Shown one piece after another: positions 17-62,977 of a stretch of 64,000 nucleotides of DNA. Numbering within the stretch: position 1 is the stretch's first letter; every line of letters begins with the position of its first letter. The position numbers were made by a program, and so were the translations under genes. Under the pieces are notes generated by a model, which saw only the letters and a list, made by a program, of their open reading frames with translations, ran no database searches and was not told the origin of the DNA. The stretch comes from Oscillospiraceae bacterium (GTDB lineage Bacteria > Bacillota > Clostridia > Oscillospirales > Oscillospiraceae), in assembly GCA_034926415.1 (NCBI GenBank), contig JAYFRC010000034.1, positions 4,232 to 68,231 on the forward strand, written 5' to 3'.

Positions 17-838
17 TCACACCCTTTCTCTCAGCTTTTCTATTCCGGCAAACATAAAAAATGCAATAATGTCTGTGACGACAATGCACGCGCCGGTAGG
101 GACGGAACCCAAATAAGATACCGTGAGTCCCACCATAAAACAGGTAATTGACAAAACGGCGGATACCACAATGGTGCTCTTAAATCTCCTGCACACCCTC
201 ATGGCGGTAAGCGACGGAAAGACAATGAGACTTGAAATCAGCAGCGTACCCATCATACGCATGCCAAGAACCACGGTAATTGCGGTGAGAGATGCGATAA
301 CCATATTATAGAAACGCGTTCCGGTTCCTGTGGCGGACGAAAAAGTTTCATCAAAGGTAACCGCAAAAATGCGGTTATAAAAGATGATGTACAAAATGAG
401 CACCGCCGCGCTTAAAAATAAAGACAGGACAACATCGCTGTGGCTCATGGCGAGAATGCTCCCGAACATATAGTTGCACACGTCCGTGTTCATTCCCGTG
501 GTCAATGAGATAGTCATAACTCCGATCGCCAGCGCGCTGCTGCACAGCAATGCCGTAGCCGCATCCCCTTTGATTTTGGAACTGTCCTTCAGCTGAAGCA
601 GGAGAAAGGCGCACACTACGCATACCGGAATGGAAACGGCCAGCGGCGCGGCGCCCATGGCATAAGCCACGGCCAGCGCGGCGAAGCCAACGTGGGAAAG
701 GCCGTCGCCTATCATTGAATATCGCTTCAGCACGAGGCTTGCCCCGAGAAGAGAGGCGCAGAGCGAGACCAGCACACCTACAATGAGCGCGCGTACCAAA
801 AAGGGGTAGGAAAGCATTTCGTACATCGTGTTCAACAT
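17..838 (-). CDS. znuB: Metal (Zn/Mn-type) ABC transporter permease, ABC-3 family
   Basis: 273-aa polytopic ORF (..RYSMIGDGLSHVGFAALAVAY..) typical of ZnuB/MntB permeases. It overlaps the upstream ATPase gene by 7 nt and lies in an operon with a Fur-family regulator. Confidence 0.8.
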   Translation of the reverse strand: MLNTMYEMLSYPFLVRALIVGVLVSLCASLLGASLVLKRYSMIGDGLSHVGFAALAVAYAMGAAPLAVSIPVCVVCAFLLLQLKDSSKIKGDAATALLCSSALAIGVMTISLTTGMNTDVCNYMFGSILAMSHSDVVLSLFLSAAVLILYIIFYNRIFAVTFDETFSSATGTGTRFYNMVIASLTAITVVLGMRMMGTLLISSLIVFPSLTAMRVCRRFKSTIVVSAVLSITCFMVGLTVSYLGSVPTGACIVVTDIIAFFMFAGIEKLRERV

Positions 839-2972: not shown

Positions 2973-3380
2973 TTAAGCATTACCGGCGCACGACAGGCAA
3001 CTGCTGCACAAACCATATAAAACCGTTTTCTGCCGACTTATCTGAAACTCATTTGCTTTATAGACGTCGGCAAGCAGCCGGGCCGTAATCTCACCCTGCA
3101 TATGAAGCGTTTTTCCACACTTGATGCAAATCATGTGAATGCTGCTTTTGCACTGCTCCGTTTGAATATACTGATAAAAAATTTCTCTTGAGCCTTCTTT
3201 TGTGGAGCGATTGATTGCTCCGGCGCTTTCAAGCGAAATCAGGTTCCGGTAAATTGCGCTCAGGCTCATTTTAGGCTCAGGCAGGCTGTCCGCGATCTGT
3301 CTGGCCGAAAACTGCCTGTCGGGATTATGCTGCAAAAAGTCCATAAGGCGCTCACGCTGCTCTGTTTTGTAGGTTACCAT
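2973..3380 (-). CDS. zur: Fur-family transcriptional repressor (Zur-like)
   Basis: Winged-helix N-terminus (FSARQIADSL..IYRNLISLESAGAI) and two CxxC pairs (CIKCGK, CSSC). The start was moved to MVTYK, with GGAGG 7 nt upstream (ORF track starts at 3419). Confidence 0.8.
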   Translation of the reverse strand: MVTYKTEQRERLMDFLQHNPDRQFSARQIADSLPEPKMSLSAIYRNLISLESAGAINRSTKEGSREIFYQYIQTEQCKSSIHMICIKCGKTLHMQGEITARLLADVYKANEFQISRQKTVLYGLCSSCLSCAGNA

Positions 3381-3400
3381 CTCCATGCCTCCAATTCCAG

Positions 3401-3478
3401 ATTTGCGAATCATACGCAAATTATGCTATCACTCAGTCTGTTCTTTGTCAATCAAAATTGCGAACTGATTGCAAATTT
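3401..3478. promoter_or_regulatory. Candidate Fur/Zur operators in the zur / ferredoxin divergent spacer
   Basis: Inverted repeat ATTTGCG-N7-CGCAAAT at 3401-3421, about 20 bp upstream of the zur start. AAAATTGCGAACTGATTGCAAATTT lies at 3454-3478. The core TTGCGAA/TTGCAAA recurs four times in 78 bp. Confidence 0.35.
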
Positions 3479-4784: not shown

Positions 4785-5617
4785 AGGTCTCGGTGCTCAG
4801 CGGAAAGGGCGGCGCGGGCAAGACCTTTGTGTCTGTGAACCTTGCCGCCGCCGCGAAAAGCGCGGTCTACATCGACTGCGATGTGGAGGAGCCGAACGGC
4901 CGCCTTTACTGGAAACCAAACGTCGAGAGCAAAACGCCGGTCGACGTTTTGGTCCCTACGTTCGACGAGGAAGAGTGCAGCGGCTGCCGGAAATGCGTGA
5001 AGTTCTGCCATTTTCACGCTCTGGCTTTTGTCAGGGATCGCCCGATGGTGTTTCACGAGGTATGTCATTCCTGCGGCGGCTGCGCGCTGGTCTGCCCGGA
5101 ACATGCCGTCTCTGAAGCCCCGCGTCAGGTGGGAGCGGTTGAAGAAGGCATGAGCGGTGACGTACGGGTTGTGACCGGAATCCTCAACAACGGCGAGGTC
5201 TCGGCTGTGCCTGTCATAAAATCCGCTCTGCGTGCGGGCGGCGAAGCCGAGTTCACGGTCATCGACTGCCCTCCCGGCAGCGGATGTCCGGTAATGGAAA
5301 GCGTGAAGGCTGCGGATTGCTGCCTGCTGGTGGCCGAACCCACCGCCTTCGGCTTCCACAATTTCAAGATGGTGCATCGGTTGGCCGTGCTGCTGCAAAA
5401 GCCCTGCGGCGTGATAATCAACAAGGCGGATACGCCCTACGCGCCGCTAGAAGAATACTGCGCGGCGCAGGGCCTTCCAATTTTGATGCGTGTCCCTTAC
5501 AGCGCGCATCTGGCCGCTCTGGGCGCGGCGGGAGAAATCACCGTGCAGTATGACGCGGACCTTGCAAAAGCATTTTGCGCTCTGCTGGATGCCGTCCGAA
5601 ATGGGGCGATCCTATGA
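4781..5617 (+). CDS. MinD/ParA-superfamily P-loop ATPase with inserted 2x[4Fe-4S] ferredoxin domain
   Basis: Deviant Walker A GKGGAGKT. CSGCRKCVKFC and CHSCGGCALVCP motifs. DCPPGSGCPV. ATGA overlap with the upstream gene. Confidence 0.8.
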   Translation: MKVSVLSGKGGAGKTFVSVNLAAAAKSAVYIDCDVEEPNGRLYWKPNVESKTPVDVLVPTFDEEECSGCRKCVKFCHFHALAFVRDRPMVFHEVCHSCGGCALVCPEHAVSEAPRQVGAVEEGMSGDVRVVTGILNNGEVSAVPVIKSALRAGGEAEFTVIDCPPGSGCPVMESVKAADCCLLVAEPTAFGFHNFKMVHRLAVLLQKPCGVIINKADTPYAPLEEYCAAQGLPILMRVPYSAHLAALGAAGEITVQYDADLAKAFCALLDAVRNGAIL

Positions 5618-6486
5618 AGAAACTGCTGATTCTAAGCGGCAAGGGCGGCACGGGCAAGACCACCACCGCCGCCGCGTTTATTCGCTTTGCCGCCGCCCGC
5701 GCCTATGCGGACTGCGATGTTGACGCGCCGAACTTGCATCTGGTATCCCCGATAAGCGGCGAGCCGGAGCGATTTGACTATCTGGGCTCGCAGAAAGCCT
5801 CCATTGATTCTCGGAAATGCATCGGCTGCGGGAAGTGCGCGGAGGCCTGCCGCTTTGATGCGATAAGCCGCACGGGAAACATTTTATCAGTCGACGAATT
5901 TTCCTGCGAGGGCTGTGGCGTGTGCGCGGAGCTCTGCCCCGAGGGCGCGGTCTCGCTTTTGGATGACGTGGCCGGAGAGGTGACGCTCTATCGTTCCCCG
6001 GCGGTGTTTGCCACGGCGGAGCTCAAAATGGGGCGCGGCAATTCCGGCAAGCTTGTGTCTGAGGTTAAGCTTGCGCTGGCGAACGCCGCGCGGGACGAGA
6101 ATCTCGCCATCATCGACGGCTCGCCCGGCATCGGCTGCCCGGTGATCGCCTCTATGGGCGGGGTGGATCTTGTGCTTATCGTGGCGGAGCCTTCGCTTTC
6201 GGGGCGCAGCGATCTTGAACGCATCCTGAAAACAGCGGAAATATTCGAGACAAAAGCGGCTGTCTGCGTCAATAAATACGACACAAGCCCTGAAAATACA
6301 GAGAAAATCTATCAATTTTGCGCCGGGCGCGGTATTCCCTTCGTTGGCCGGATTCCATACGACAAGCAGGCGTCCGCCGCCATCAACGCCGGAAAAAGCC
6401 TTGCGGATATAGACTGTGCCGCATCCCGAGCGCTGCACGAAGTGTTTGAGCGCACTATGGATCTGCTCGGAGTCGAAGCAAGTTGA
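5614..6486 (+). CDS. MinD/ParA-superfamily P-loop ATPase with inserted 2x[4Fe-4S] ferredoxin domain (paralogue)
   Basis: GKGGTGKTT, CIGCGKCAEAC, CEGCGVCAELCP, DGSPGIGCPV. The start at MKKLLIL gives an ATGA overlap with the upstream stop. Confidence 0.8.
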   Translation: MKKLLILSGKGGTGKTTTAAAFIRFAAARAYADCDVDAPNLHLVSPISGEPERFDYLGSQKASIDSRKCIGCGKCAEACRFDAISRTGNILSVDEFSCEGCGVCAELCPEGAVSLLDDVAGEVTLYRSPAVFATAELKMGRGNSGKLVSEVKLALANAARDENLAIIDGSPGIGCPVIASMGGVDLVLIVAEPSLSGRSDLERILKTAEIFETKAAVCVNKYDTSPENTEKIYQFCAGRGIPFVGRIPYDKQASAAINAGKSLADIDCAASRALHEVFERTMDLLGVEAS

Positions 6487-6584
6487 AAATCGCATGGCGC
6501 AGTATCAATCTCTGAAAACAAAAATGAAGCAGCTGCATCATCCGCCCTGCGGGCGGATGCCGGCGCTTTGAGGAGGAACACAAC

Positions 6585-7406
6585 ATGAGCGAAGAATGTT
6601 CGCACACCTGCGAAAGCTGCGGCAAGGACTGCAGCGAACGTACAAAAGAAAGCCTGCTGGAAAAGCCCCATGAGGGCTGCCATGTGAAAAAAGTCATCGG
6701 CGTGGTCAGCGGCAAGGGCGGCGTGGGCAAGAGCCTCGTCACCTCCATGCTCGCGGTTATGACCCAGAGAAAAGGCTACCAGGCGGCTATCCTGGACGCC
6801 GATATCACCGGCCCCTCCATTCCGCAGATGTTAGGCCTGCACACCCACGCCTCGGGAACGGAATCCGGCATTTACCCGGTTAAATCCAAGACCGGAATCC
6901 GAGTCATGTCCCTCAATCTGCTTATGGAACGTGAGACAGACCCGGTGGTATGGCGCGGCCCCATTATCGCGGGCACGGTCAAGCAGTTCTGGACGGACGT
7001 AATCTGGGGCGACGTGGACTATATGTTCATCGACATGCCGCCCGGCACCGGCGACGTGCCCCTGACTGTGTTCCAGTCCATCCCTGTGGACGGCCTTGTC
7101 ATCGTTGCCTCCCCGCAGGAGCTGGTGGGCATGATAGTTGAAAAGGCAGTCAACATGGCGGGCATAATGAACATTCCCGTTCTTGCTCTGGTCGAGAACA
7201 TGAGCTATATCGTCTGCCCTGACTGCGGCAGGGAGATCCGTGTGTTCGGCGAAAGCCGGATTGCCGAGATCGCGAAAAAGCATTTCATCGAGAACACCGC
7301 GCGCCTGTCTATCGATCCGAAGCTGGCGGCGGCCTGCGACGCAGGCATGATAGAGCTTTTCGACGGAAACTGGCTGAACGAGATACTCGATACCATTATA
7401 AAATAA
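6585..7406 (+). CDS. Mrp/NBP35/ApbC-family Fe-S cluster carrier ATPase
   Basis: GKGGVGKS deviant Walker A, conserved CPDC near the C-terminus, Cys-rich N-terminus CSHTCESCGKDC. AGGAGG RBS. Confidence 0.85.
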   Translation: MSEECSHTCESCGKDCSERTKESLLEKPHEGCHVKKVIGVVSGKGGVGKSLVTSMLAVMTQRKGYQAAILDADITGPSIPQMLGLHTHASGTESGIYPVKSKTGIRVMSLNLLMERETDPVVWRGPIIAGTVKQFWTDVIWGDVDYMFIDMPPGTGDVPLTVFQSIPVDGLVIVASPQELVGMIVEKAVNMAGIMNIPVLALVENMSYIVCPDCGREIRVFGESRIAEIAKKHFIENTARLSIDPKLAAACDAGMIELFDGNWLNEILDTIIK

Positions 7407-7861: not shown

Positions 7862-7899
7862 AAAAACCTCCGCGCGTTTTTAACGCACGGAGGTTTTTT
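7862..7899. terminator. Bidirectional intrinsic terminator
   Basis: AAAAA-CCTCCGCGCG-loop-CGCACGGAGG-TTTTTT between convergent genes (the + gene ends at 7788, the - gene ends at 7926). Confidence 0.7.
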
Positions 7900-7925
7900 C
7901 CGTATATGTACCGGGGCTACAGGGC

Positions 7926-9435: not shown

Positions 9436-9873
9436 TCAGCGATTTAAGTCATATTCTTTATAACGGTCCACCTTGGGCTGGGACGGGCATCCGGCAGTGA
9501 AATCACTGCCAAGCCAAGTCTTTATAAGTTCCGCCGCCAGCTTCTCACCGATGGTGAACGCGCCGATGCAGGCGATGTTGCTGTCGTTGCTCTTCATCGC
9601 GCGCTCAGCTGAATAAACATCCGATATGAGCGCCGCGTAAGCTCCGCGAACCTTGTTCGCGGCGATGCTCATTCCTACGCCGGTGCCGCAGAGGAGTATG
9701 CCTCTGTCGTATTTTCCGGCAGCGACAGCTTCCGCCACCGCGATGGCGGTATTGGCGTATATTGGATCGTCGCTTCCCATGTCGGTTATCTCATGCCCCT
9801 GAGCCTTGCAGACCTCGATAATTGATTTTTTGAGCGCGGTCGCATTCGGATCGCAGCCTATTGCGAGCTTCAT
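9436..9873 (-). CDS. rpiB: RpiB/LacA/LacB-family sugar-phosphate isomerase
   Basis: 145 aa. MKLAIGCDPNA..LLCGTGVGMSIAANKV signature. Confidence 0.85.
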   Translation of the reverse strand: MKLAIGCDPNATALKKSIIEVCKAQGHEITDMGSDDPIYANTAIAVAEAVAAGKYDRGILLCGTGVGMSIAANKVRGAYAALISDVYSAERAMKSNDSNIACIGAFTIGEKLAAELIKTWLGSDFTAGCPSQPKVDRYKEYDLNR

Positions 9874-9926
9874 GTTTATGTCATTTCCTTTCTTTGTCTA
9901 TATCCGGATTTTCCAGTATATCAAAA

Positions 9927-30721: not shown

Positions 30722-31572
30722 TTGCTCTCCCCCTTCCTCTTAATGCATGAAAATGAAAGGTTTATAAGCATTATGAACACAAACAGCACAACGCCGGTGG
30801 CAAACAGCGCCTCGCGGTGAAGGTCGGTCGCGTAGCCCATCTCAATGACAATATTAGCCGTCATCGTGCGGACTCCCGAAAGTATTCCCGCCGGCATCGC
30901 GGTCTGGTTTCCGGCGACCATGATTATGGCCATCGTCTCGCCTATCGCGCGGCCCATGCCGAGCACGACGCCTGCCAGCACTCCCGACTTGGCGGCCGGA
31001 AGCACGGAGAAGAAAACGCTTCTCTCTTTCGTCGCGCCGAGAGCCAGCGAGCCCTCGAAATATGCCTCCGGTACGGCGCGAAGCGACGATTCGGCCACGC
31101 CGATTATAGTGGGAAGTATCATTATGCCAAGCAGTATCGACGCGGTCAATATGCTCTTTCCGCTGCCTCCGAACAGTGTCTGCATAAGCGGAACTATGGC
31201 CATCAGTCCGAAAAATCCATAGACTATCGACGGTATGCCTGCCAGGAGATCAACCGCGGGCTTCGCAATCTTATATATTCCCTTCGGGCAAAAGCGAGCC
31301 ATGAACACGGCCGTAAGTATCCCAAGCGGAACTCCGAACACCATGGCTCCGGCCGTGACGTATATGCTTCCGACTATCATCGGGAATATGCCGTAGAGGT
31401 CGCTGTTCGGCTTCCAGACCGTGCCGAAAAGGAATTTGAGTGGACCTATCTCCACTATCGCCGGTATGCCGCTTTTGAAAAGGAAGATGCAGATAACGGC
31501 CACCGCGAATATCGATACGCACGCCGCCACCATAAATATGGCGTGCATGGCGTTTTCCTTGAATGCGTTCAT
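30718..31572 (-). CDS. pstC: Phosphate ABC transporter permease PstC
   Basis: Six-TM permease; assigned by position and sequence. Confidence 0.9.
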   Translation of the reverse strand: MNAFKENAMHAIFMVAACVSIFAVAVICIFLFKSGIPAIVEIGPLKFLFGTVWKPNSDLYGIFPMIVGSIYVTAGAMVFGVPLGILTAVFMARFCPKGIYKIAKPAVDLLAGIPSIVYGFFGLMAIVPLMQTLFGGSGKSILTASILLGIMILPTIIGVAESSLRAVPEAYFEGSLALGATKERSVFFSVLPAAKSGVLAGVVLGMGRAIGETMAIIMVAGNQTAMPAGILSGVRTMTANIVIEMGYATDLHREALFATGVVLFVFIMLINLSFSCIKRKGESK

Positions 31573-31716
31573 AGCTGTTGCCCATTCCTTTCATTTTGTT
31601 CAAGTCACAAAACGACCTCAAAAAAGGATGGTCATAGTGTGAACGTTTTGCTGCCGGCGCGAAAACAGCGTGCAAAACCACCTTGAATCAAATGAGGTTT
31701 GAACTTCTTTCAAACC
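31573..31716 (-). repeat. Copy A of a 3-copy ~140-nt three-hairpin intra-operon element (pstS|pstC spacer)
   Basis: Aligns block by block with 48048-48190 and 55477-55617 (see findings). Confidence 0.8.
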
Positions 31717-31793
31717 TTTTGCCTTGCTCGCGGAACGAGCCCGGGACTCCTGCCCCGGGCGCTCTCCGCTTATATTTACTCTGATGTTTCGCT

Positions 31794-46535: not shown

Positions 46536-48047
46536 TTAAAGTCCGTCCTGAAGCTGCTTGTCCTTGCGCTTTCCGCGAAGTATGAGCACCACGGAGATTA
46601 TCGTCGCCGCCCAGAATATCCAGCAAAGCGGCGAGGAGAAGAACGTTCCGACATCTCCGCCCGACAGAACAAGCGCGCGGCGGAAATTCTTTTCAAACAA
46701 AGGCGAGAGTATGAAGCCGATAAGAACACAGGCCATGGGGAATTTGAACTTCGAGAGGATATAGCCGATGACAGCGAACACGAGCATTATCCACACGTCG
46801 GTGAGGTTGGAGTTAAGCGCGTACACGCCGATGATGCAGAACATGACGACGGCCGGGAAAATTATCGTCGTTTCAAGCGAGCATATCTTCTTGAATGCCT
46901 TCCATGTGAGAAGCACTATCGCGACGAGCACGACGTTGCAGAGTATGAGGCCGGCGTAGACATTGTAAACCGTTGCCGGAGACTCCTGGAACACCAGCGG
47001 GCCGGGGGTAAGGCCCTGAACGATGAACGCAGACATGAGCAAAGCCGCGCCGGTGTCGCCGGGAACGCCGATAGAGAGCAGAGGTATCATGTTCGCGCCG
47101 CAGACCGCGTTGTTCGCGCACTCCGCGCCCGCGACGCCCTCTATCGCGCCGTGGCCGAACTCCTCGGGATGCTTCGCGTTCTTGTGCGCGACATCGTAGC
47201 CTATGTAGCACGCAAGCGCGGGCCCGAGGCCCGGAAGCGATCCGATACCGCAGCCGAGGAACGCGGAGGTTATCCAGTGGCGGAGGCAGGTCTTTGCGTC
47301 AGCAAGAGTAAATTTGTTGTCATCCTTGCAGGTCGGCGGAGGAAGCTGAGCCTTGGTATTGCCGAGGGCGACGCTTTCGACCTGCTTGAGAACCTCGGAC
47401 AGGGCGAGGAAGCCGATGAGCATTACCACGAGGTCGATGCCGGACGAGAGCTTCAGCACGCCGAAGGTCAGACGCGGAATGGTAAACGACATGTCCATTC
47501 CGACGCAGCCGAACATCAGTCCGACACAGCCGGCGAGCAGTCCCTTTATCATGGACTTTCCGGCGGCGGAGGCAATTATCGTCAGCGCAAATATCATAAG
47601 CACCGCATACTCCGCGGGGCCGAAGTTCAGGGCGTACTTCGCTATCGGCTGAGCTACGACTATAAGGACTATGCAGCTGAACAGGCAGCCGAACGCCGAG
47701 CTGAACAGCGCCGTCTTAATAGCCTTTCCGGCTTTGCCCTGCCGAGCCAGCGCGTAGCCGTCGGCCACTGTCGCAGCGGCTGCTGGCGTGCCGGGCGTGC
47801 CGATAAGTATGGCCGCGAGCGAGCCGCCAAAGGTCCCCGCGTTATACGCGGCGAGCAGCATTACGAGCGACTGCGTGGGCGTGAGGTAATACGTCATCGG
47901 TATGACGAGCGCTATCGCCATCGTAGCGGTCAGTCCGGGTATCGCGCCGAGGACAAGTCCAAGCGCGACGCCGCCGAACAGGAAAAGGATGTTCATCGGC
48001 ATCAGCACAGCCTCGAAACCGCTGAACAGCATTGAAAGTGCTTCCAT
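46536..48047 (-). CDS. tctA: Tripartite tricarboxylate transporter large permease TctA
   Basis: About 500-aa polytopic protein with the GxxxG-rich TctA pattern. ATG at 48047 preferred (ORF track: 48059). Confidence 0.85.
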   Translation of the reverse strand: MEALSMLFSGFEAVLMPMNILFLFGGVALGLVLGAIPGLTATMAIALVIPMTYYLTPTQSLVMLLAAYNAGTFGGSLAAILIGTPGTPAAAATVADGYALARQGKAGKAIKTALFSSAFGCLFSCIVLIVVAQPIAKYALNFGPAEYAVLMIFALTIIASAAGKSMIKGLLAGCVGLMFGCVGMDMSFTIPRLTFGVLKLSSGIDLVVMLIGFLALSEVLKQVESVALGNTKAQLPPPTCKDDNKFTLADAKTCLRHWITSAFLGCGIGSLPGLGPALACYIGYDVAHKNAKHPEEFGHGAIEGVAGAECANNAVCGANMIPLLSIGVPGDTGAALLMSAFIVQGLTPGPLVFQESPATVYNVYAGLILCNVVLVAIVLLTWKAFKKICSLETTIIFPAVVMFCIIGVYALNSNLTDVWIMLVFAVIGYILSKFKFPMACVLIGFILSPLFEKNFRRALVLSGGDVGTFFSSPLCWIFWAATIISVVLILRGKRKDKQLQDGL

Positions 48048-48190
48048 TTTTATGACCATTCCTTTCTCTTTGGCAGAGTCACAAAATGACCATGAAAAGG
48101 AATGGCCATAATGTGCGTTTTTTTCGGTTGCCGCCCATGCGGCGAGAAAAATGCACTTAAATCAATTAAAGTTTGAGTTTGTTTCAAACT
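48048..48190 (-). repeat. Copy B of the three-hairpin intra-operon element (tctB|tctA spacer)
   Basis: Same block order as copies A and C. The H1 5' arm plus loop can form 15 consecutive pairs with the tctA SD region. Confidence 0.8.
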
Positions 48191-48205
48191 TTTTCTCCTT
48201 CTTTC

Positions 48206-52357: not shown

Positions 52358-53929
52358 TTATGCGCCGTAGCCGCTTGAGTAGCTTCCGCTGTACGAACTG
52401 CCGCTGCCGGTTCCGTTATTGAAGTAATAGCTGTAGCCGTTGCTTCCGTTGCTGCTGCCGCCGTTCTGGGTGGCGCCGCTGGACGTGTCTGGAACCGTGG
52501 TCGTGCTGCTGCTCGTCGTCGAAGCGGGCTCGGCGCCGAAGGTAAAGTTTATGGTAGTTTCCTTGCCGCTGCGGTAAACCGTAAGCGTGCAGCTGTCCCC
52601 GGCCTTATAGGATTTCTTCGCGGTGGTCAGGTCGTCCATTGAGGTAATAGTCGTATCGTCTATCTTTGTTATGATGTCTCCGGCCTGGAGTCCGCATTTC
52701 TCGCCCGCTCCGCCTTCCTCGATGCTGTAAACGTATACGCCTTCAACGAGGTTGTACTGTTTGGCCATGTCGGAGGTCACGGTCTGGGCGGTAATGCCCA
52801 TGTAGGGCTTATTGGTAACATAGCCGTTTTCCATGATGTCCTTTATCATGCTCCAGACAGTACTGATTGGAATAGCGAAGCCCACGCCCTCGACCGTGGT
52901 AGTCGAATAGGAGCTGTACTTGGCGGAAACGATACCGACAACCTCGCCATAGGAATTAAGCAGCGGGCCGCCGGAGTTGCCGGGATTGATGGCGCAGTCA
53001 ATCTGGATCATGTCAAAGGACTGGCCTTCGACCTCTATCGCGCGGTCACAGCTCGAGACGACTCCGGTCGTCAGGCTGAAGGTAAGCTCGCCAAGCGGGT
53101 TGCCGATGGCGTTGGCCTGGTCGCCGACGTTGAGAGCGGTGCTGTCGCCTATAACAACGGTGCTGAGACCCGTGGCGGCTATCTTCACCACGGCAATGTC
53201 GTTTTCTTCGTCGCCGCCGACATAGGAGGCGGTATAGCTCGTGCCGTCATAGGTCGTCACGTTTATGGACGTGGCACCCTCTACAACGTGGTAGTTGGTG
53301 ACTATATATCCGTCGGAGGTGATTATGAAACCGCTTCCGGAGGCCGCGTTCTGAACAGTCTGTCCGAAAATGTTGGTGGAGTTTTCGGAAACGTTGATGC
53401 TGACGACAGCGTTGACGTTGGCAGCATAGACCTCTGCCGGAGTCATCTCGGTCTGTCCATCGACGGAGACCTGATTTACCGTTCCGACCGTGCGGCTGCT
53501 GACCGCCACGCTCGTAGAGTCCCCGCTGCCGTTTATGGCGTACATCGCGCCCGCTCCGACTCCTCCGCCTATAAGCGAGCAGACGAGCATGGCCGCTACC
53601 ATCTGTTTACCAAAGCCAGCGCCGCCTTTCTTTTTGGGCTTTTCATCGGCGCTGCGGGGCGTGCTGTCCTCAAATCGGTGATAACCGGTGTCGGCGTTTC
53701 CGCCCTCCGCGCTTTTCCCGCTTTCCGCATTGCTTTCGGCGGTGCTTCGGCTCTCGCCGGCCTTGGGGGCTTCATAGACGGGCTCCGGCTGGCTGTCGCG
53801 GGTCGAGTGATAGGACGCGCTCTCGGGAGCCGGCTCCCTCCAGCGGTAGCTTTCGTCCCTGTTCGGCGTTTCGCCGCCCGCGTTGTTTATATTTTCATTG
53901 TTCATGTTGTTTTCATTGTTCTCATTCAT
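52358..53929 (-). CDS. HtrA/DegP-family membrane-anchored serine protease with PDZ domain and low-complexity termini
   Basis: Catalytic triad contexts TNYHVV, DIAVVKI, GNSGGPL. PDZ domain. AGGAGG RBS before MNENNENN (ORF track: 54007). S/G/Y-rich C-terminal tail. Confidence 0.85.
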   Translation of the reverse strand: MNENNENNMNNENINNAGGETPNRDESYRWREPAPESASYHSTRDSQPEPVYEAPKAGESRSTAESNAESGKSAEGGNADTGYHRFEDSTPRSADEKPKKKGGAGFGKQMVAAMLVCSLIGGGVGAGAMYAINGSGDSTSVAVSSRTVGTVNQVSVDGQTEMTPAEVYAANVNAVVSINVSENSTNIFGQTVQNAASGSGFIITSDGYIVTNYHVVEGATSINVTTYDGTSYTASYVGGDEENDIAVVKIAATGLSTVVIGDSTALNVGDQANAIGNPLGELTFSLTTGVVSSCDRAIEVEGQSFDMIQIDCAINPGNSGGPLLNSYGEVVGIVSAKYSSYSTTTVEGVGFAIPISTVWSMIKDIMENGYVTNKPYMGITAQTVTSDMAKQYNLVEGVYVYSIEEGGAGEKCGLQAGDIITKIDDTTITSMDDLTTAKKSYKAGDSCTLTVYRSGKETTINFTFGAEPASTTSSSTTTVPDTSSGATQNGGSSNGSNGYSYYFNNGTGSGSSYSGSYSSGYGA

Positions 53930-54074
53930 GGCAAAGTTCCTCCTTGAAAACATATGTGAAGCAAACACGCGGATACATTTCCGCTTCCTGTTTACAATGC
54001 GTATCATAAACTGCCATACTTAATTTAATCTTAAAAATTACAAAATATTTTTTACTTTTTGTAAGCATACTGGC

Positions 54075-54141: not shown

Positions 54142-55476
54142 TTATGAATAACTTGACTCCGCGTCGAGCACAACGGGAAATTCCATCGTCTCGCCGTCTC
54201 TTAAAACTGTGAGCGTCATAGTTTCGCCGGGGGCGTGCGTGCGGCGCACCTCAAGCAGGTCCTTTGTCGAAGACACTTCCGTTCCGTCGGCCGCGGTTAT
54301 GACGTCTCCCTGACGAAGTCCCGCCGCCTTGGAACAACTGCCTGACTCGACAGAGTAGACGATAAGTCCTGTTTTCCCGCCGTCAAGCGCCACGGGCATC
54401 ACGGTTATGCCGAGTCTGCATTCCGGCAGCACGTAGCCGTATTCAAGTATCTGATTCACCTCATACAAAAATTCCGACGAGGGTATCGCAAAGCCCAGGC
54501 CTTCCACAGTATAGCTGCTCGAGCCCATTTTTATCGTGTTTATGCCGACGACCTGGCCTCTCGAGTTTATGAGCGGACCGCCGGAGTTGCCGGGGTTCAG
54601 CGCGGCGTTTGTCTGTATCAGCGTCATTGAGCGGCCGTTCACGTCCACGTTGCGGTTTATGGCGGAGATTATTCCGTCCGTCAGCGTCCCTCGAAGCTCG
54701 AGTCCGAGCGGGTTTCCTATGGCGTATGCCGTTTCGCCGACTATAAGGTCGTCGCTGTCGCCTATTTCGGCGGGCTCAAGGTCGTCCGCATCGACCTTCA
54801 GCACCGCAATGTCGCGGTCTGTATCGTAGCCGATGAGCGAAGCGTCGAGTTTTTCGCCGGTATAGAGAATGACGGCGCAGCTAGTACCACCATCTATAAC
54901 GTGGGCGTTCGTAAGTATATATCCGCTCTCGGTCAATATAACTCCCGTACCTATGGACGCCGTGGTACTGTCCTGCATGGCGGCTACCGTCACGACCGAG
55001 GGAAGCACCTTGGCGTAGACCTCTGAGGCTGAAAGCTCCTTCGCGCTCTTGTTTTCGCTCATGCCTATACTTACGCCGAGCCCGTGCGCAGCAGCCGCGA
55101 TATGCACCTTGGACGAATCGCCGTTCTCGTCTTCGTTGTACCAGAGTATATCGCCGTCGCCGTGACCGCCGCCGTGCACGACGGAGTAAAAGGGAACGAA
55201 CTTCGCGACCAGCGCGAGTCCTACCGCCGCGGCGCAGAGCGCCGCGAATATGACGACGCCGCGCTTTCCGTGCTTCGGTTTTTTCGGCTCTCTTCGCTCC
55301 TTCTGCTTTGCCTTCTTTACATACATCGGAAGCTTCTCGCCCTCTTGTTTCTTTCTCTCGGCTTCAGAAACAAAATCGCGTTCGTATGTCAGAACTACTT
55401 CCAACGGCAAATACGGACGTTCGTAACTCTCCTGTATCTCGCGCTGGGGCTCCGCATCGTTTCCAATTTTTTCCAT
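54142..55476 (-). CDS. HtrA/DegP-family membrane-anchored serine protease with PDZ domain
   Basis: TNAHVI, DIAVLKV, GNSGGPL. One TM segment. ATG at 55476 preferred over the TTG at 55506. Confidence 0.85.
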   Translation of the reverse strand: MEKIGNDAEPQREIQESYERPYLPLEVVLTYERDFVSEAERKKQEGEKLPMYVKKAKQKERREPKKPKHGKRGVVIFAALCAAAVGLALVAKFVPFYSVVHGGGHGDGDILWYNEDENGDSSKVHIAAAAHGLGVSIGMSENKSAKELSASEVYAKVLPSVVTVAAMQDSTTASIGTGVILTESGYILTNAHVIDGGTSCAVILYTGEKLDASLIGYDTDRDIAVLKVDADDLEPAEIGDSDDLIVGETAYAIGNPLGLELRGTLTDGIISAINRNVDVNGRSMTLIQTNAALNPGNSGGPLINSRGQVVGINTIKMGSSSYTVEGLGFAIPSSEFLYEVNQILEYGYVLPECRLGITVMPVALDGGKTGLIVYSVESGSCSKAAGLRQGDVITAADGTEVSSTKDLLEVRRTHAPGETMTLTVLRDGETMEFPVVLDAESSYS

Positions 55477-55617
55477 AAATATGACCGTGCCTTTCGCTTC
55501 GCTCAAGGTTCAAAATGACCATTAAAAGGGATGGTCATAATGTGTATATTTTCTGTCGCCGCGCAAGCGGCAAAAATGCGTAATTGAATCAAATAAAGTC
55601 TGAACCTGTTTCAAACT
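55477..55617 (-). repeat. Copy C of the three-hairpin intra-operon element (sensor kinase|htrA spacer)
   Basis: Same block order as copies A and B. Perfect 8-bp H1 (AUGACCAU/AUGGUCAU). Confidence 0.8.
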
Positions 55618-55634
55618 TCTCCGTCTTCGCGGTT

Positions 55635-62851: not shown

Positions 62852-62977
62852 ATTCGTTACCGTTCCTTTCGCCTCGCCGCACAAATTAAAATTCGTTTTC
62901 TTGCGCCGAGCGTATAGACAATGGAATATTTGCCCAAAATAGGAATAACGTTAGTAATACAAGGAGTGGAATGTTCC

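Follow-up and report, generated by a model that had tools for sequence, protein, structure and literature searches.

Several kinds of small dispersed repeats lie within bacterial transcription units, and it is with these that a ~140-nt sequence belongs which occurs three times in a 64,000-nt stretch of an Oscillospiraceae bacterium (assembly GCA_034926415.1, contig JAYFRC010000034.1, positions 4,232 to 68,231 of the forward strand; hereafter the window). The enterobacterial ERIC/IRU elements, whose Yersinia copies reportedly adjoin ribosome-binding sites (RBSs; De Gregorio et al. 2005), are likewise ~130-nt non-coding dispersed repeats of transcribed intergenic regions, operons included, with RNA hairpins able to mask an RBS or alter mRNA fate; they differ in being palindromes with terminal inverted repeats, present in both orientations with a TA duplication, which supply no Shine-Dalgarno (SD) sequence and are not confined to the spacer between SD and start codon. 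The Correia elements of Neisseria (CREE/NEMIS) are small non-autonomous insertions near gene starts that carry expression signals and are co-transcribed, but they have 26-bp terminal inverted repeats, a TA target duplication and both orientations, and the signals they carry are promoters, IHF sites and RNase III sites, not an SD. The RAYT-moved REP, BIME and REPIN repeats are abundant intergenic palindromes, often found between co-directional genes and presumably mobilised in trans, but REPs measure 20-40 nt and form inverted doublets after stop codons, with no fixed start-codon distance and no SD. The left end and 5' untranslated region of IS200, said to have been dissected by Beuzon, Marques and Casadesus in 1999, has the same order of parts, with a terminal hairpin that halts incoming expression and then an SD-sequestering stem-loop just before the ATG; that ATG, however, opens the transposase gene of IS200 itself, whereas the ATG behind the present element opens unrelated host genes and no transposase is attached. 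In its action the element would resemble SD-sequestering riboregulators such as ROSE/fourU RNA thermometers and riboswitch platforms, in which the anti-SD strand is contested by a local hairpin and by the SD; those are vertically inherited and gene-class-specific, in contrast to a multi-copy element that stands before arbitrary genes and has no identified signal. Finally, the BOX, RUP and SPRITE repeats of Streptococcus pneumoniae, for which BOX-derived open reading frames (ORFs) without a good SD are described, are modular multi-hairpin units that lie inside transcription units and are expressed in mRNAs, SPRITE resembling a terminator hairpin, but they show no fixed relation to a start codon and no replacement SD (Croucher et al. 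2011, PMC3049150).

We put at about 0.75 the probability that the three sequences represent a family of non-coding, non-autonomous insertion elements of uncultured Oscillospiraceae, lodged in translation-initiation regions. The direct observations behind this reading are family membership, location, orientation, presence or absence at orthologous sites, covariation in one of the hairpins (H2) and the relative stabilities of two alternative folds, and the element is an insertion into the SD-to-start spacer with a replacement SD, not a regulon-specific attenuator. It lacks the defining features of a classical miniature inverted-repeat transposable element (MITE), of a PATE or REP, of a riboswitch-type leader and of any Rfam family, and as far as the searches made can show it is previously undescribed: full-text literature searches on MITEs, repeats and SD or start codons brought up nothing equivalent, and Rfam gave no match over the window, the best hit in a permissive scan of copy B scoring 16 bits against a threshold of 87, in agreement with an earlier note on this DNA, which did not recognise a known RNA family in it. 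That note had described three copies of a composite of hairpins with an anti-SD arm and had interpreted them as a cis-acting module that attenuates transcription and gates the translation of membrane-protein cistrons, an interpretation that is partly supported by what follows.

Read on the minus strand, each copy consists of a hairpin (H3), a linker, a longer stem (H2), a third hairpin (H1) whose 5' arm and loop form the anti-SD arm, and an SD box just before the next gene. The copies lie between pstS and pstC (A), tctB and tctA (B), and a histidine kinase gene and htrA (C), identities borne out by Pfam matches of the flanking genes; these are all minus-strand, and each copy is in the sense orientation relative to its own genes. 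With unit bounds corrected to run from WAGTTTG to GGTCATW, and with scores from a covariance model of the wider family, the features are as follows.

31577-31717, minus strand: copy A, whole element (AGGTTTG...GGGCAAC), from the pstS-distal spacer to pstC; 119 bits
31695-31717, minus strand: H3 of copy A, an AU-rich 9-bp hairpin with GTT-TGA / TTG (sequence, folding)
31645-31679, minus strand: H2 hairpin of copy A (GGTTTTGC...GCAAAAC; sequence, covariation, folding)
31605-31642, minus strand: H1 hairpin of copy A including the outer stem; anti-SD arm (5' arm plus loop) at 31621-31636
31577-31592, minus strand: SD box of copy A (GAAAGGAATGGGCAAC), the replacement RBS, with a degenerate 3' end
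31570-31572, minus strand: pstC start codon, 4 nt 3' of copy A
48051-48191, minus strand: copy B, whole element; 142 bits
48169-48191, minus strand: H3 of copy B
48113-48156, minus strand: H2 of copy B
48080-48116, minus strand: H1 of copy B; anti-SD arm at 48095-48110
48051-48066, minus strand: SD box of copy B
48195-48200, minus strand: native SD of tctA (AAGGAG), now ~150 nt off the start codon; empty relatives read TAA-AGGAGG-N7-12-ATG
48045-48047, minus strand: tctA start codon, 3 nt 3' of copy B
55480-55618, minus strand: copy C, whole element; 113 bits
55596-55618, minus strand: H3 of copy C
55547-55576, minus strand: H2 of copy C
55511-55544, minus strand: H1 of copy C; anti-SD arm at 55524-55539
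55480-55495, minus strand: SD box of copy C
55619-55622, minus strand: native SD remnant (GGAG) upstream of copy C, from the sequence
55474-55476, minus strand: htrA start codon, 3 nt 3' of copy C

An unbiased repeat search of the window re-found copies A to C as families D1 and D3, and degenerate patterns for H1 and for H3 with its adjoining block each matched exactly three times in the 64 kb, where shuffles expect 0.00. Together with a mean column identity of 76% in the alignment of the three and with the covariance-model scores, this establishes the composite minus-strand repeat as real, its bounds slightly shifted from those first given; the three full copies of the earlier list stand, although the list missed one decayed relic and possibly a second, both described below.

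To gather the wider family, an H1 core pattern was scanned over 185,579 species-representative genomes, which returned 58 loci, 56 of them in 15 Oscillospiraceae/Clostridia metagenome-assembled genomes (MAGs) whose sources are termite gut, animal gut and digesters; one fragmented MAG has as many as 13 copies. The covariance model yielded 65 matches over the scan loci and the window, and the element numbers at least 60 copies across the 15 MAGs, always in the sense orientation. It is ~135-145 nt long and non-coding, and in true copies WAGTTTGAAA-loop-TTCAAACTW (H3), the linker, the long H2 stem and CACA-ATGRCCAT-loop-ATGGTCRT-TGTG (H1) are followed by 12-17 variable bases, GAAAGGAATGGTCATW, ~3 nt and ATG. 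Two matches in 'Leptospirales' MAG contigs (L036 3561-3703 and L054 5791-5828) have nothing in common with the element but an H1-like palindrome (AAATGGCCATACTTTTTTATGGTCATTTTCTGA), set in AT-rich DNA, and were rejected as family members. MAG CAYQMY01 also holds a second, unrelated repeat family (TTTTGGACGATTTGGCG...AGCAAGCAAG...GTGCTTA; L015 ~1585-1760 and L058 ~3340-3410), in one case lodged within an element copy, between H1 and the SD box.

The genes downstream of more than 50 copies are unrelated housekeeping genes with no functional theme, among them those for peptide deformylase (def), topoisomerase I (topA), PstB, transketolase, 6-phosphogluconate dehydrogenase, Era, MurB, Lon, PlsX, RfbB, PyrF, HisB, RlmH, ArgR, UppP, a small acid-soluble spore protein (SASP), a TRAP permease and an antitoxin, which removes the proposed dedication to membrane-protein cistrons. 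Nor does the intra-operon setting of the window copies hold as a rule: many copies stand before the first gene of a unit instead of an internal cistron, and some directly follow sigma-70-like promoters (e.g. TTGACA-17-TATACT at L006).

The ATG lies 0-4 nt past GGTCATW in 52 of the 53 distinct copies that have an SD box, and exactly 3 nt past it in 41. On the 5' side, a strict GGAG or GAGG core is found within 14 nt of the element in 29 of 45 cases, compared with 10% of background 14-mers from the same loci, and most copies without the strict core have weaker purine runs upstream. The upstream ORF stops 1-3 nt 5' of the element at several loci, and at L011, L012, L018, L050 and L056 it stops at the TGA of the element's own GTT-TGA. 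The element fills the spot where a start codon would normally follow the native SD, and the target sites, including those made by an earlier copy, share only two things, an ATG whose distance is fixed and an SD whose distance varies, the left flanks being without a motif.

Three independent comparisons of filled and empty sites, at plsX, at tkt and at the tctB-tctA junction of the window, reveal what stood there before: the empty junctions of close relatives are plain stop-GGAGG-N7-10-ATG, and at all three sites the left spacer plus the ~3 nt at the right add up to normal SD-ATG spacing. The plsX junction is filled in L051 (WQTE01) and empty in relatives with PlsX identities of 91, 86, 85 and 75%, native GGGAGGactgagTTT-ATG corresponding to filled GAGAGAtgcgtg[element]TTT-ATG (at greater length, native ...ctgctatactttaccGGGAGGactgagTTT-ATGAAA versus filled ...ctgctatactatactGAGAGAtgcgtg[TAGTTTG...GGTCATT]TTT-ATGAAG). 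At tkt (transketolase C-subunit), L011 reads GGGAGcatgaa[GTTTG...GGTCATA]aac-ATG, and relatives of 90 and 87% identity have GGAGGtgcagtg-ATG and GGAGGctgcgttaa-ATG, respectively. The tctB-tctA junction is also filled in L148 (TctA 95% identical), the Logan contig SRR24756484_13545, which is syntenic with the window from 36.5 to 58 kb at 93-94% nucleotide identity over 21.5 kb and has both copies B and C at the orthologous sites; it is empty in relatives at 85, 84 and 79%, where the covariance model is silent and the junctions read TAAAGGAGGggaacgcaaaca-ATG, ...gaaagaaaggtgggtaaccc-ATG and TAAGGAGGagaatgt-ATG. The nearest named TctA to that of the window is from Intestinimonas butyriciproducens (79%), which assigns the window to an uncultured lineage of Oscillospiraceae. 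For copy A, the composite element was absent from all 45 pstC relatives examined (66-74% identity), whose pstS-pstC junction is stop-AGGAGG-N5-8-ATG, and protein records for the window PstC and PstB, as a route to the orthologous site in the sister genome, returned none.

We therefore propose the following course of events. An insertion would place the 5' end of the element (WAGTTTGAAA...) a few bases past the native SD and its 3' end (GAAAGGAATGGTCATW) ~3 nt short of the start codon, thus pushing the native SD ~140 nt from the start and offering in its stead the element's own SD (GAAAGGA) at ~10 nt aligned spacing, while the GTT-TGA at the 5' end would close one reading frame arriving from the upstream cistron. 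The element's SD would from then on drive translation of the host gene, and the element presumably survives before essential genes (era, topA, murB, plsX) because this replacement SD comes with it. The resulting mRNA is predicted to adopt two exclusive folds, H1 with the SD free or a ~16-bp anti-SD:SD helix with the SD buried, such that downstream translation may come to depend on the fold of the element. H1 would form first during transcription and hold the anti-SD arm, keeping young copies or fresh transcripts translatable; refolding to the stabler anti-SD:SD helix, or a failure of upstream ribosomes to hold it open, would lower translation. Spread would proceed by transposition-like events, with an enzyme acting in trans.

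The RNA folds were assessed on 42 distinct full copies (set A2). A model of H3, H2 and H1 is 93.9% paired, a value reached by none of 500 column shuffles (85.2%) and far from the 36-40% obtained when the partners are slid by 1-3 columns. Both-side changes occur at 10 of the 11 H2 pairs (45:78 UA20/AU14/CG4; 46:77 UA25/GC10/AU3; 51:74 GC17/UA16; 58:65 GC20/CG13), around an interior of conserved unpaired bases, CTC opposite CAACCG. The composite hairpins are accordingly real, and the observation that H2 pairing survives sequence change, first made on the three window copies, extends to the family, in which the proposed check for covariation in homologues gives H2 strong support. Invariance of the H1 core is not evidence, because the core is fixed by the search pattern. 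The free positions of H1 do behave as sense-strand pairs. Opposite U, column 109 has A in 29 copies and G in 13 but never a pyrimidine, the U.G count there being 13 and the A.C count zero; in the outer stem G.U pairs outnumber A.C pairs by 18 to 5, and L037, L050 and winA supply compensatory cases. The argument from G.U pairs for a gene-sense RNA thus holds in H1, whereas neither strand is favored in H2 (8 vs 5) or H3 (11 vs 7). As RNA, the two DNA strands fold comparably well, and the strand call therefore rests on the G.U counts and on SD logic. A GCAC between H2 and H1 pairs with a GTGC either upstream or downstream, with a few double changes for each.

The complementarity of the anti-SD arm to the downstream SD, likewise claimed from the window copies, was recovered with standard pairs at 16/16 positions in B, 14/16 in C and 12/16 in A, and in the family the SD box, which lies outside the search pattern, is 95.7% complementary to the arm. 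H1 and the anti-SD:SD helix are indeed mutually exclusive alternative folds, because the same 5' arm is used by both. RNAalifold prefers the anti-SD:SD helix over H1; with each fold enforced, the SD-burying one is the more stable in 28/42 copies, by a mean of -2.8 kcal/mol, and the mean unpaired probability of AAAGGA is at most 0.05 in most young copies. Within the window, the SD of copy B is buried (7 kcal/mol; P = 0.02), and copies A and C favour H1 with an open SD (about 0.5). The U-tract placed after H3 as part of the element fared worse, for it is not a conserved feature: a termite-gut sublineage has AACGGGGG there, a tail that is not U-rich, and in a permissive terminator scan copy A passes and B and C fail, so that transcription attenuation by H3 and a U-tract is not supported. 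As an intrinsic terminator, which calls for a G+C-rich stem with an immediate U-tract, H3 was accordingly rejected.

Copies within one genome are on average 77% identical (96% in WQTE01; 84-87% in CAYSFK01 and JAZLGK01) versus 63.5% between genomes, the columns fixed by the search pattern being left out of these figures; the window copies are mutually 64-70% identical and therefore older. Nine contigs end within the element, and contig ends of this sort are the usual assembly sign of near-identical repeats. The same start codon has been struck twice at L026, where 25 nt identical to the element's 3' end (7878-7902, minus strand) abut a full copy on its 5' side, and at L052, where an internally deleted copy of another subfamily (354-386, minus strand) does so; both double junctions read GGTCAT-W-AGTTTG, with one W in common. 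Decayed copies form a series in which H3, H2 or H1 is gone and the SD box and its 3-nt gap to the ATG are kept, and survival of the SD box alone is expected if the gene now relies on the element's SD. The window contributes one such relic and possibly a second:

62852-62885, minus strand: decayed relic of the element's 3' part (TTTGTGC-N10-GAAAGGAACGGTAACG, 3 nt, ATG) before a tadA-like deaminase gene (Pfam MafB19-deam / dCMP_cyt_deam_1); 16 bits, E 0.21
9877-9892, minus strand: possible SD-box-only relic (GAAAGGAAATGACATA, 3 nt, ATG of ORF 9436-9873), a weak match (13.9 bits, E = 0.59) that may be a relic or merely an ordinary RBS

In a comparison of the window with L148, identity is 83.7% at 4-fold degenerate sites (2237/2672) and 92-94% in the elements (B 135/144, C 131/143). 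The elements as wholes are nevertheless unexceptional, because other intergenic regions are likewise 82-98% identical; purifying selection on the element as a whole was thus rejected, its conservation being above that of 4-fold sites and not above that of other intergenic DNA. The 3' halves, from H1 to the ATG, carry 3 changes in 153 nt and the 5' halves 18 in 134 nt, a distribution which suggests that the new translation-initiation part is constrained while H3 and H2 drift.

Several points weigh against the reading of these sequences as insertion elements of the SD-start spacer. Because the family was gathered with a pattern inside H1, ascertainment explains some of the conservation seen in H1 and in a portion of the anti-SD loop; the relatives, moreover, all come from MAG or metagenome contigs. 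A transposase, recombinase or autonomous parent was not found in ~0.5 Mb of loci or among plasmids, phages and viral contigs, a search that did not extend to whole genomes; BLAST and pattern scans of the plasmids, phages and viral contigs revealed no similar sequence either. The ends WAGTTTGAAA and GGTCATW are not complementary and form no terminal inverted repeats, the 16-bp inverted repeat instead pairing the element's 3' end with an internal site ~45 nt off, and a target-site duplication is unconvincing, the best 2-nt WA match (26/42 vs 17.9 in shuffles) tracking lineage. We know of no mechanism that accounts for targeting 3 nt before start codons, and simple sequence specificity combined with selection fails to explain why copies are missing from the rest of the intergenic DNA. 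Of the 16 copies in which the central anti-SD:SD pair 101:144 varies, 12 have a mismatch there, and selection for SD sequestration is therefore not demonstrated. Retention of B and C at orthologous sites with constrained 3' halves points in turn to host-level constraint and some acquired function, not a pure selfish passenger. As for MITEs, the element is small, non-coding, free of a conserved ORF, multi-copy and present or absent at orthologous sites, but it has no terminal inverted repeats, and no autonomous IS with the same ends was found in the loci, plasmids, phages and viral contigs searched. The earlier note had named a match to an already described REP/MITE-like repeat as refuting its own interpretation, and a dispersed insertion element of that general kind, if not one already described, is what we find.

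An extension of the insertion reading, which we offer as a tentative possibility, is that of an 'RBS-homing' mobile riboregulator: the element would recognise initiation regions, for example through pairing of its 16S-like pyrimidine loop (CCUUUU) with the native SD and by gauging the 3 nt to the ATG, on either DNA or RNA, and would swap a private RBS for a standard self-sequestering one, placing dozens of unrelated housekeeping genes per genome under one translational switch responsive to upstream translation, temperature or a trans factor.

Among the rival explanations, we regard as unlikely a mobile riboregulator whose conserved RNA parts, the H2 internal loop and the H1 loop, bind a common trans factor or sense a physical signal, its insertions recruiting genes to a shared, host-beneficial translational circuit. 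The conserved unpaired CTC and CAACCG within a covarying H2, the compensatory changes seen for both GCAC pairings, the retention of B and C with their constrained 3' halves and the persistence in both genomes of the perfect 16-bp SD trap of copy B would all fit such a circuit; on the other hand, no ligand, protein or small RNA partner was identified, other intergenic regions of the two genomes are likewise 82-98% identical, drift has taken the old copies A and C into the open fold, and relics reduced to the SD box show that the remainder is dispensable.

It also seems unlikely, to a like degree, that the element derives from a single-stranded DNA (HUH) transposon, as an IS200/IS605-type PATE or a RAYT-moved REP/REPIN in which H3, H2 and H1 serve the transposase as DNA hairpins. 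Hairpins near both ends, a strictly uniform orientation and the lack of a convincing target-site duplication would fit such a derivative, as would extra-helical bases conserved in H2 and the lack of an RNA-specific G.U bias in H2 and H3, and the layout recalls the terminator hairpin and RBS-sequestering stem-loop of the IS200 left end. The left (H3) and right (H1) hairpins, however, have no sequence relation to each other, the flank 5' of the element offers only SD-like purines at variable distance and no conserved 4-5-nt target, and no Y1 transposase gene was seen beside any copy; moreover, a ~140-nt element of three different hairpins in one orientation is unlike both 20-40-nt REPs and inverted-doublet REPINs.

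The host-evolved cis-regulatory leader envisaged at the outset, in which H3 and a U-tract attenuate and the H1/anti-SD switch gates membrane-protein cistrons, we now consider distinctly improbable. In its favor, the alternative pairing does exist, the SD-sequestering fold is stable, H1 has its G.U excess on the gene-sense strand, and the 3' halves are near-invariant between the window and L148. Yet the downstream genes share nothing and many of them are first genes, the terminator pattern of H3 is confined to copy A and the tail of the termite-gut sublineage is not U-rich, copies inside one genome are near-identical, and at the orthologous junctions close relatives have plain SD-ATG spacers without the element, which speaks against a module evolved in the host. 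A riboswitch or gene-specific leader was rejected on the same grounds, with covariation present but no coherent gene set and orthologous junctions empty at 75-91%.

Very little credence attaches to a small protein encoded by the element, whether a sense upstream ORF from the TTG of H3 or an antisense peptide MTIPF, a reading that is effectively refuted. A native SD does lie 4-10 nt 5' of the TTG in H3, the TTG frame of copy B runs through 45 codons to a stop 5 nt short of the ATG, and an antisense MTIPF...QNDHEKEW is found in several copies; but the stops of the sense frame are scattered from codon 1 to 64, element lengths are not multiples of three, the antisense frame shifts with spacer length from 8 to >40 codons, and changes in H2 preserve pairs, not codons.

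A DNA-level device, that is, an invertible segment between 16-bp inverted repeats or an operator palindrome cluster for a DNA-binding protein, is hardly credible, for despite three palindromes and a 16-bp inverted repeat (TATGACCATTCCTTTY / GAAAGGAATGGTCATA) around ~45 bp, the segment is flipped relative to H2 and the gene in none of ~60 copies, the palindromes differ among themselves, and 45 bp is a very short substrate for an invertase. Rejected as well were an integron attC site or gene cassette, GTTTGAA not conforming to GTTRRRY and the flanks being core operon genes (pstSC, tctBA, plsX) in conserved synteny, and a resemblance to Xer/dif sites, dropped as a misfit to the core motif; for a self-cleaving ribozyme or insulator, also considered, Rfam gave no ribozyme match.

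The neighborhood of the window copies holds further features. Preceding copy A is a GC hairpin of the kind that the earlier note had mentioned there; the hairpin exists, although it is not part of the repeat and belongs to the native pstS-distal spacer:

31730-31769, minus strand: GC-rich hairpin directly after pstS, native and outside the repeat (-32.8 kcal/mol, z = -4.0)

It is long, lacks a U-tract and, independently of the repeat, probably acts as a native pstS-distal stabiliser or attenuator. Downstream of copy C, two tandem HtrA-type (trypsin-PDZ) paralogues (52358-54007 and 54142-55476, minus strand) lie 3' of a two-component system, with the element before the first only. Elsewhere in the window, three consecutive plus-strand ORFs at 4793-6739 have P-loop (GKGGxGKT) and Cys-rich (GCGxCxxxC) repeats in common (families D6, D11 and D12) and are probably paralogous MinD/Mrp-like Fe-S ATPases.

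In practical terms, MAG assemblies break at the element, and in Oscillospiraceae it can lead the annotation of start codons and operons astray, the former effect visible in truncated contigs and the latter in L148 (2649-2678), where the gene caller put the HtrA start at a TTG inside the element, 10 codons 5' of the conserved ATG. More broadly, small bacterial dispersed repeats are usually described in 'safe' intergenic DNA, whereas this family sits almost only in the highly constrained SD-start spacer. If confirmed, the finding would point to a targeting mechanism that reads translation-start regions and would provide a natural portable RBS-plus-insulator module of synthetic-biology interest. 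It would also show how the translation of many unrelated genes could hang on one RNA fold and, should the 'RBS-homing' proposal prove true, the carriers would possess a post-transcriptional regulon built by transposition.

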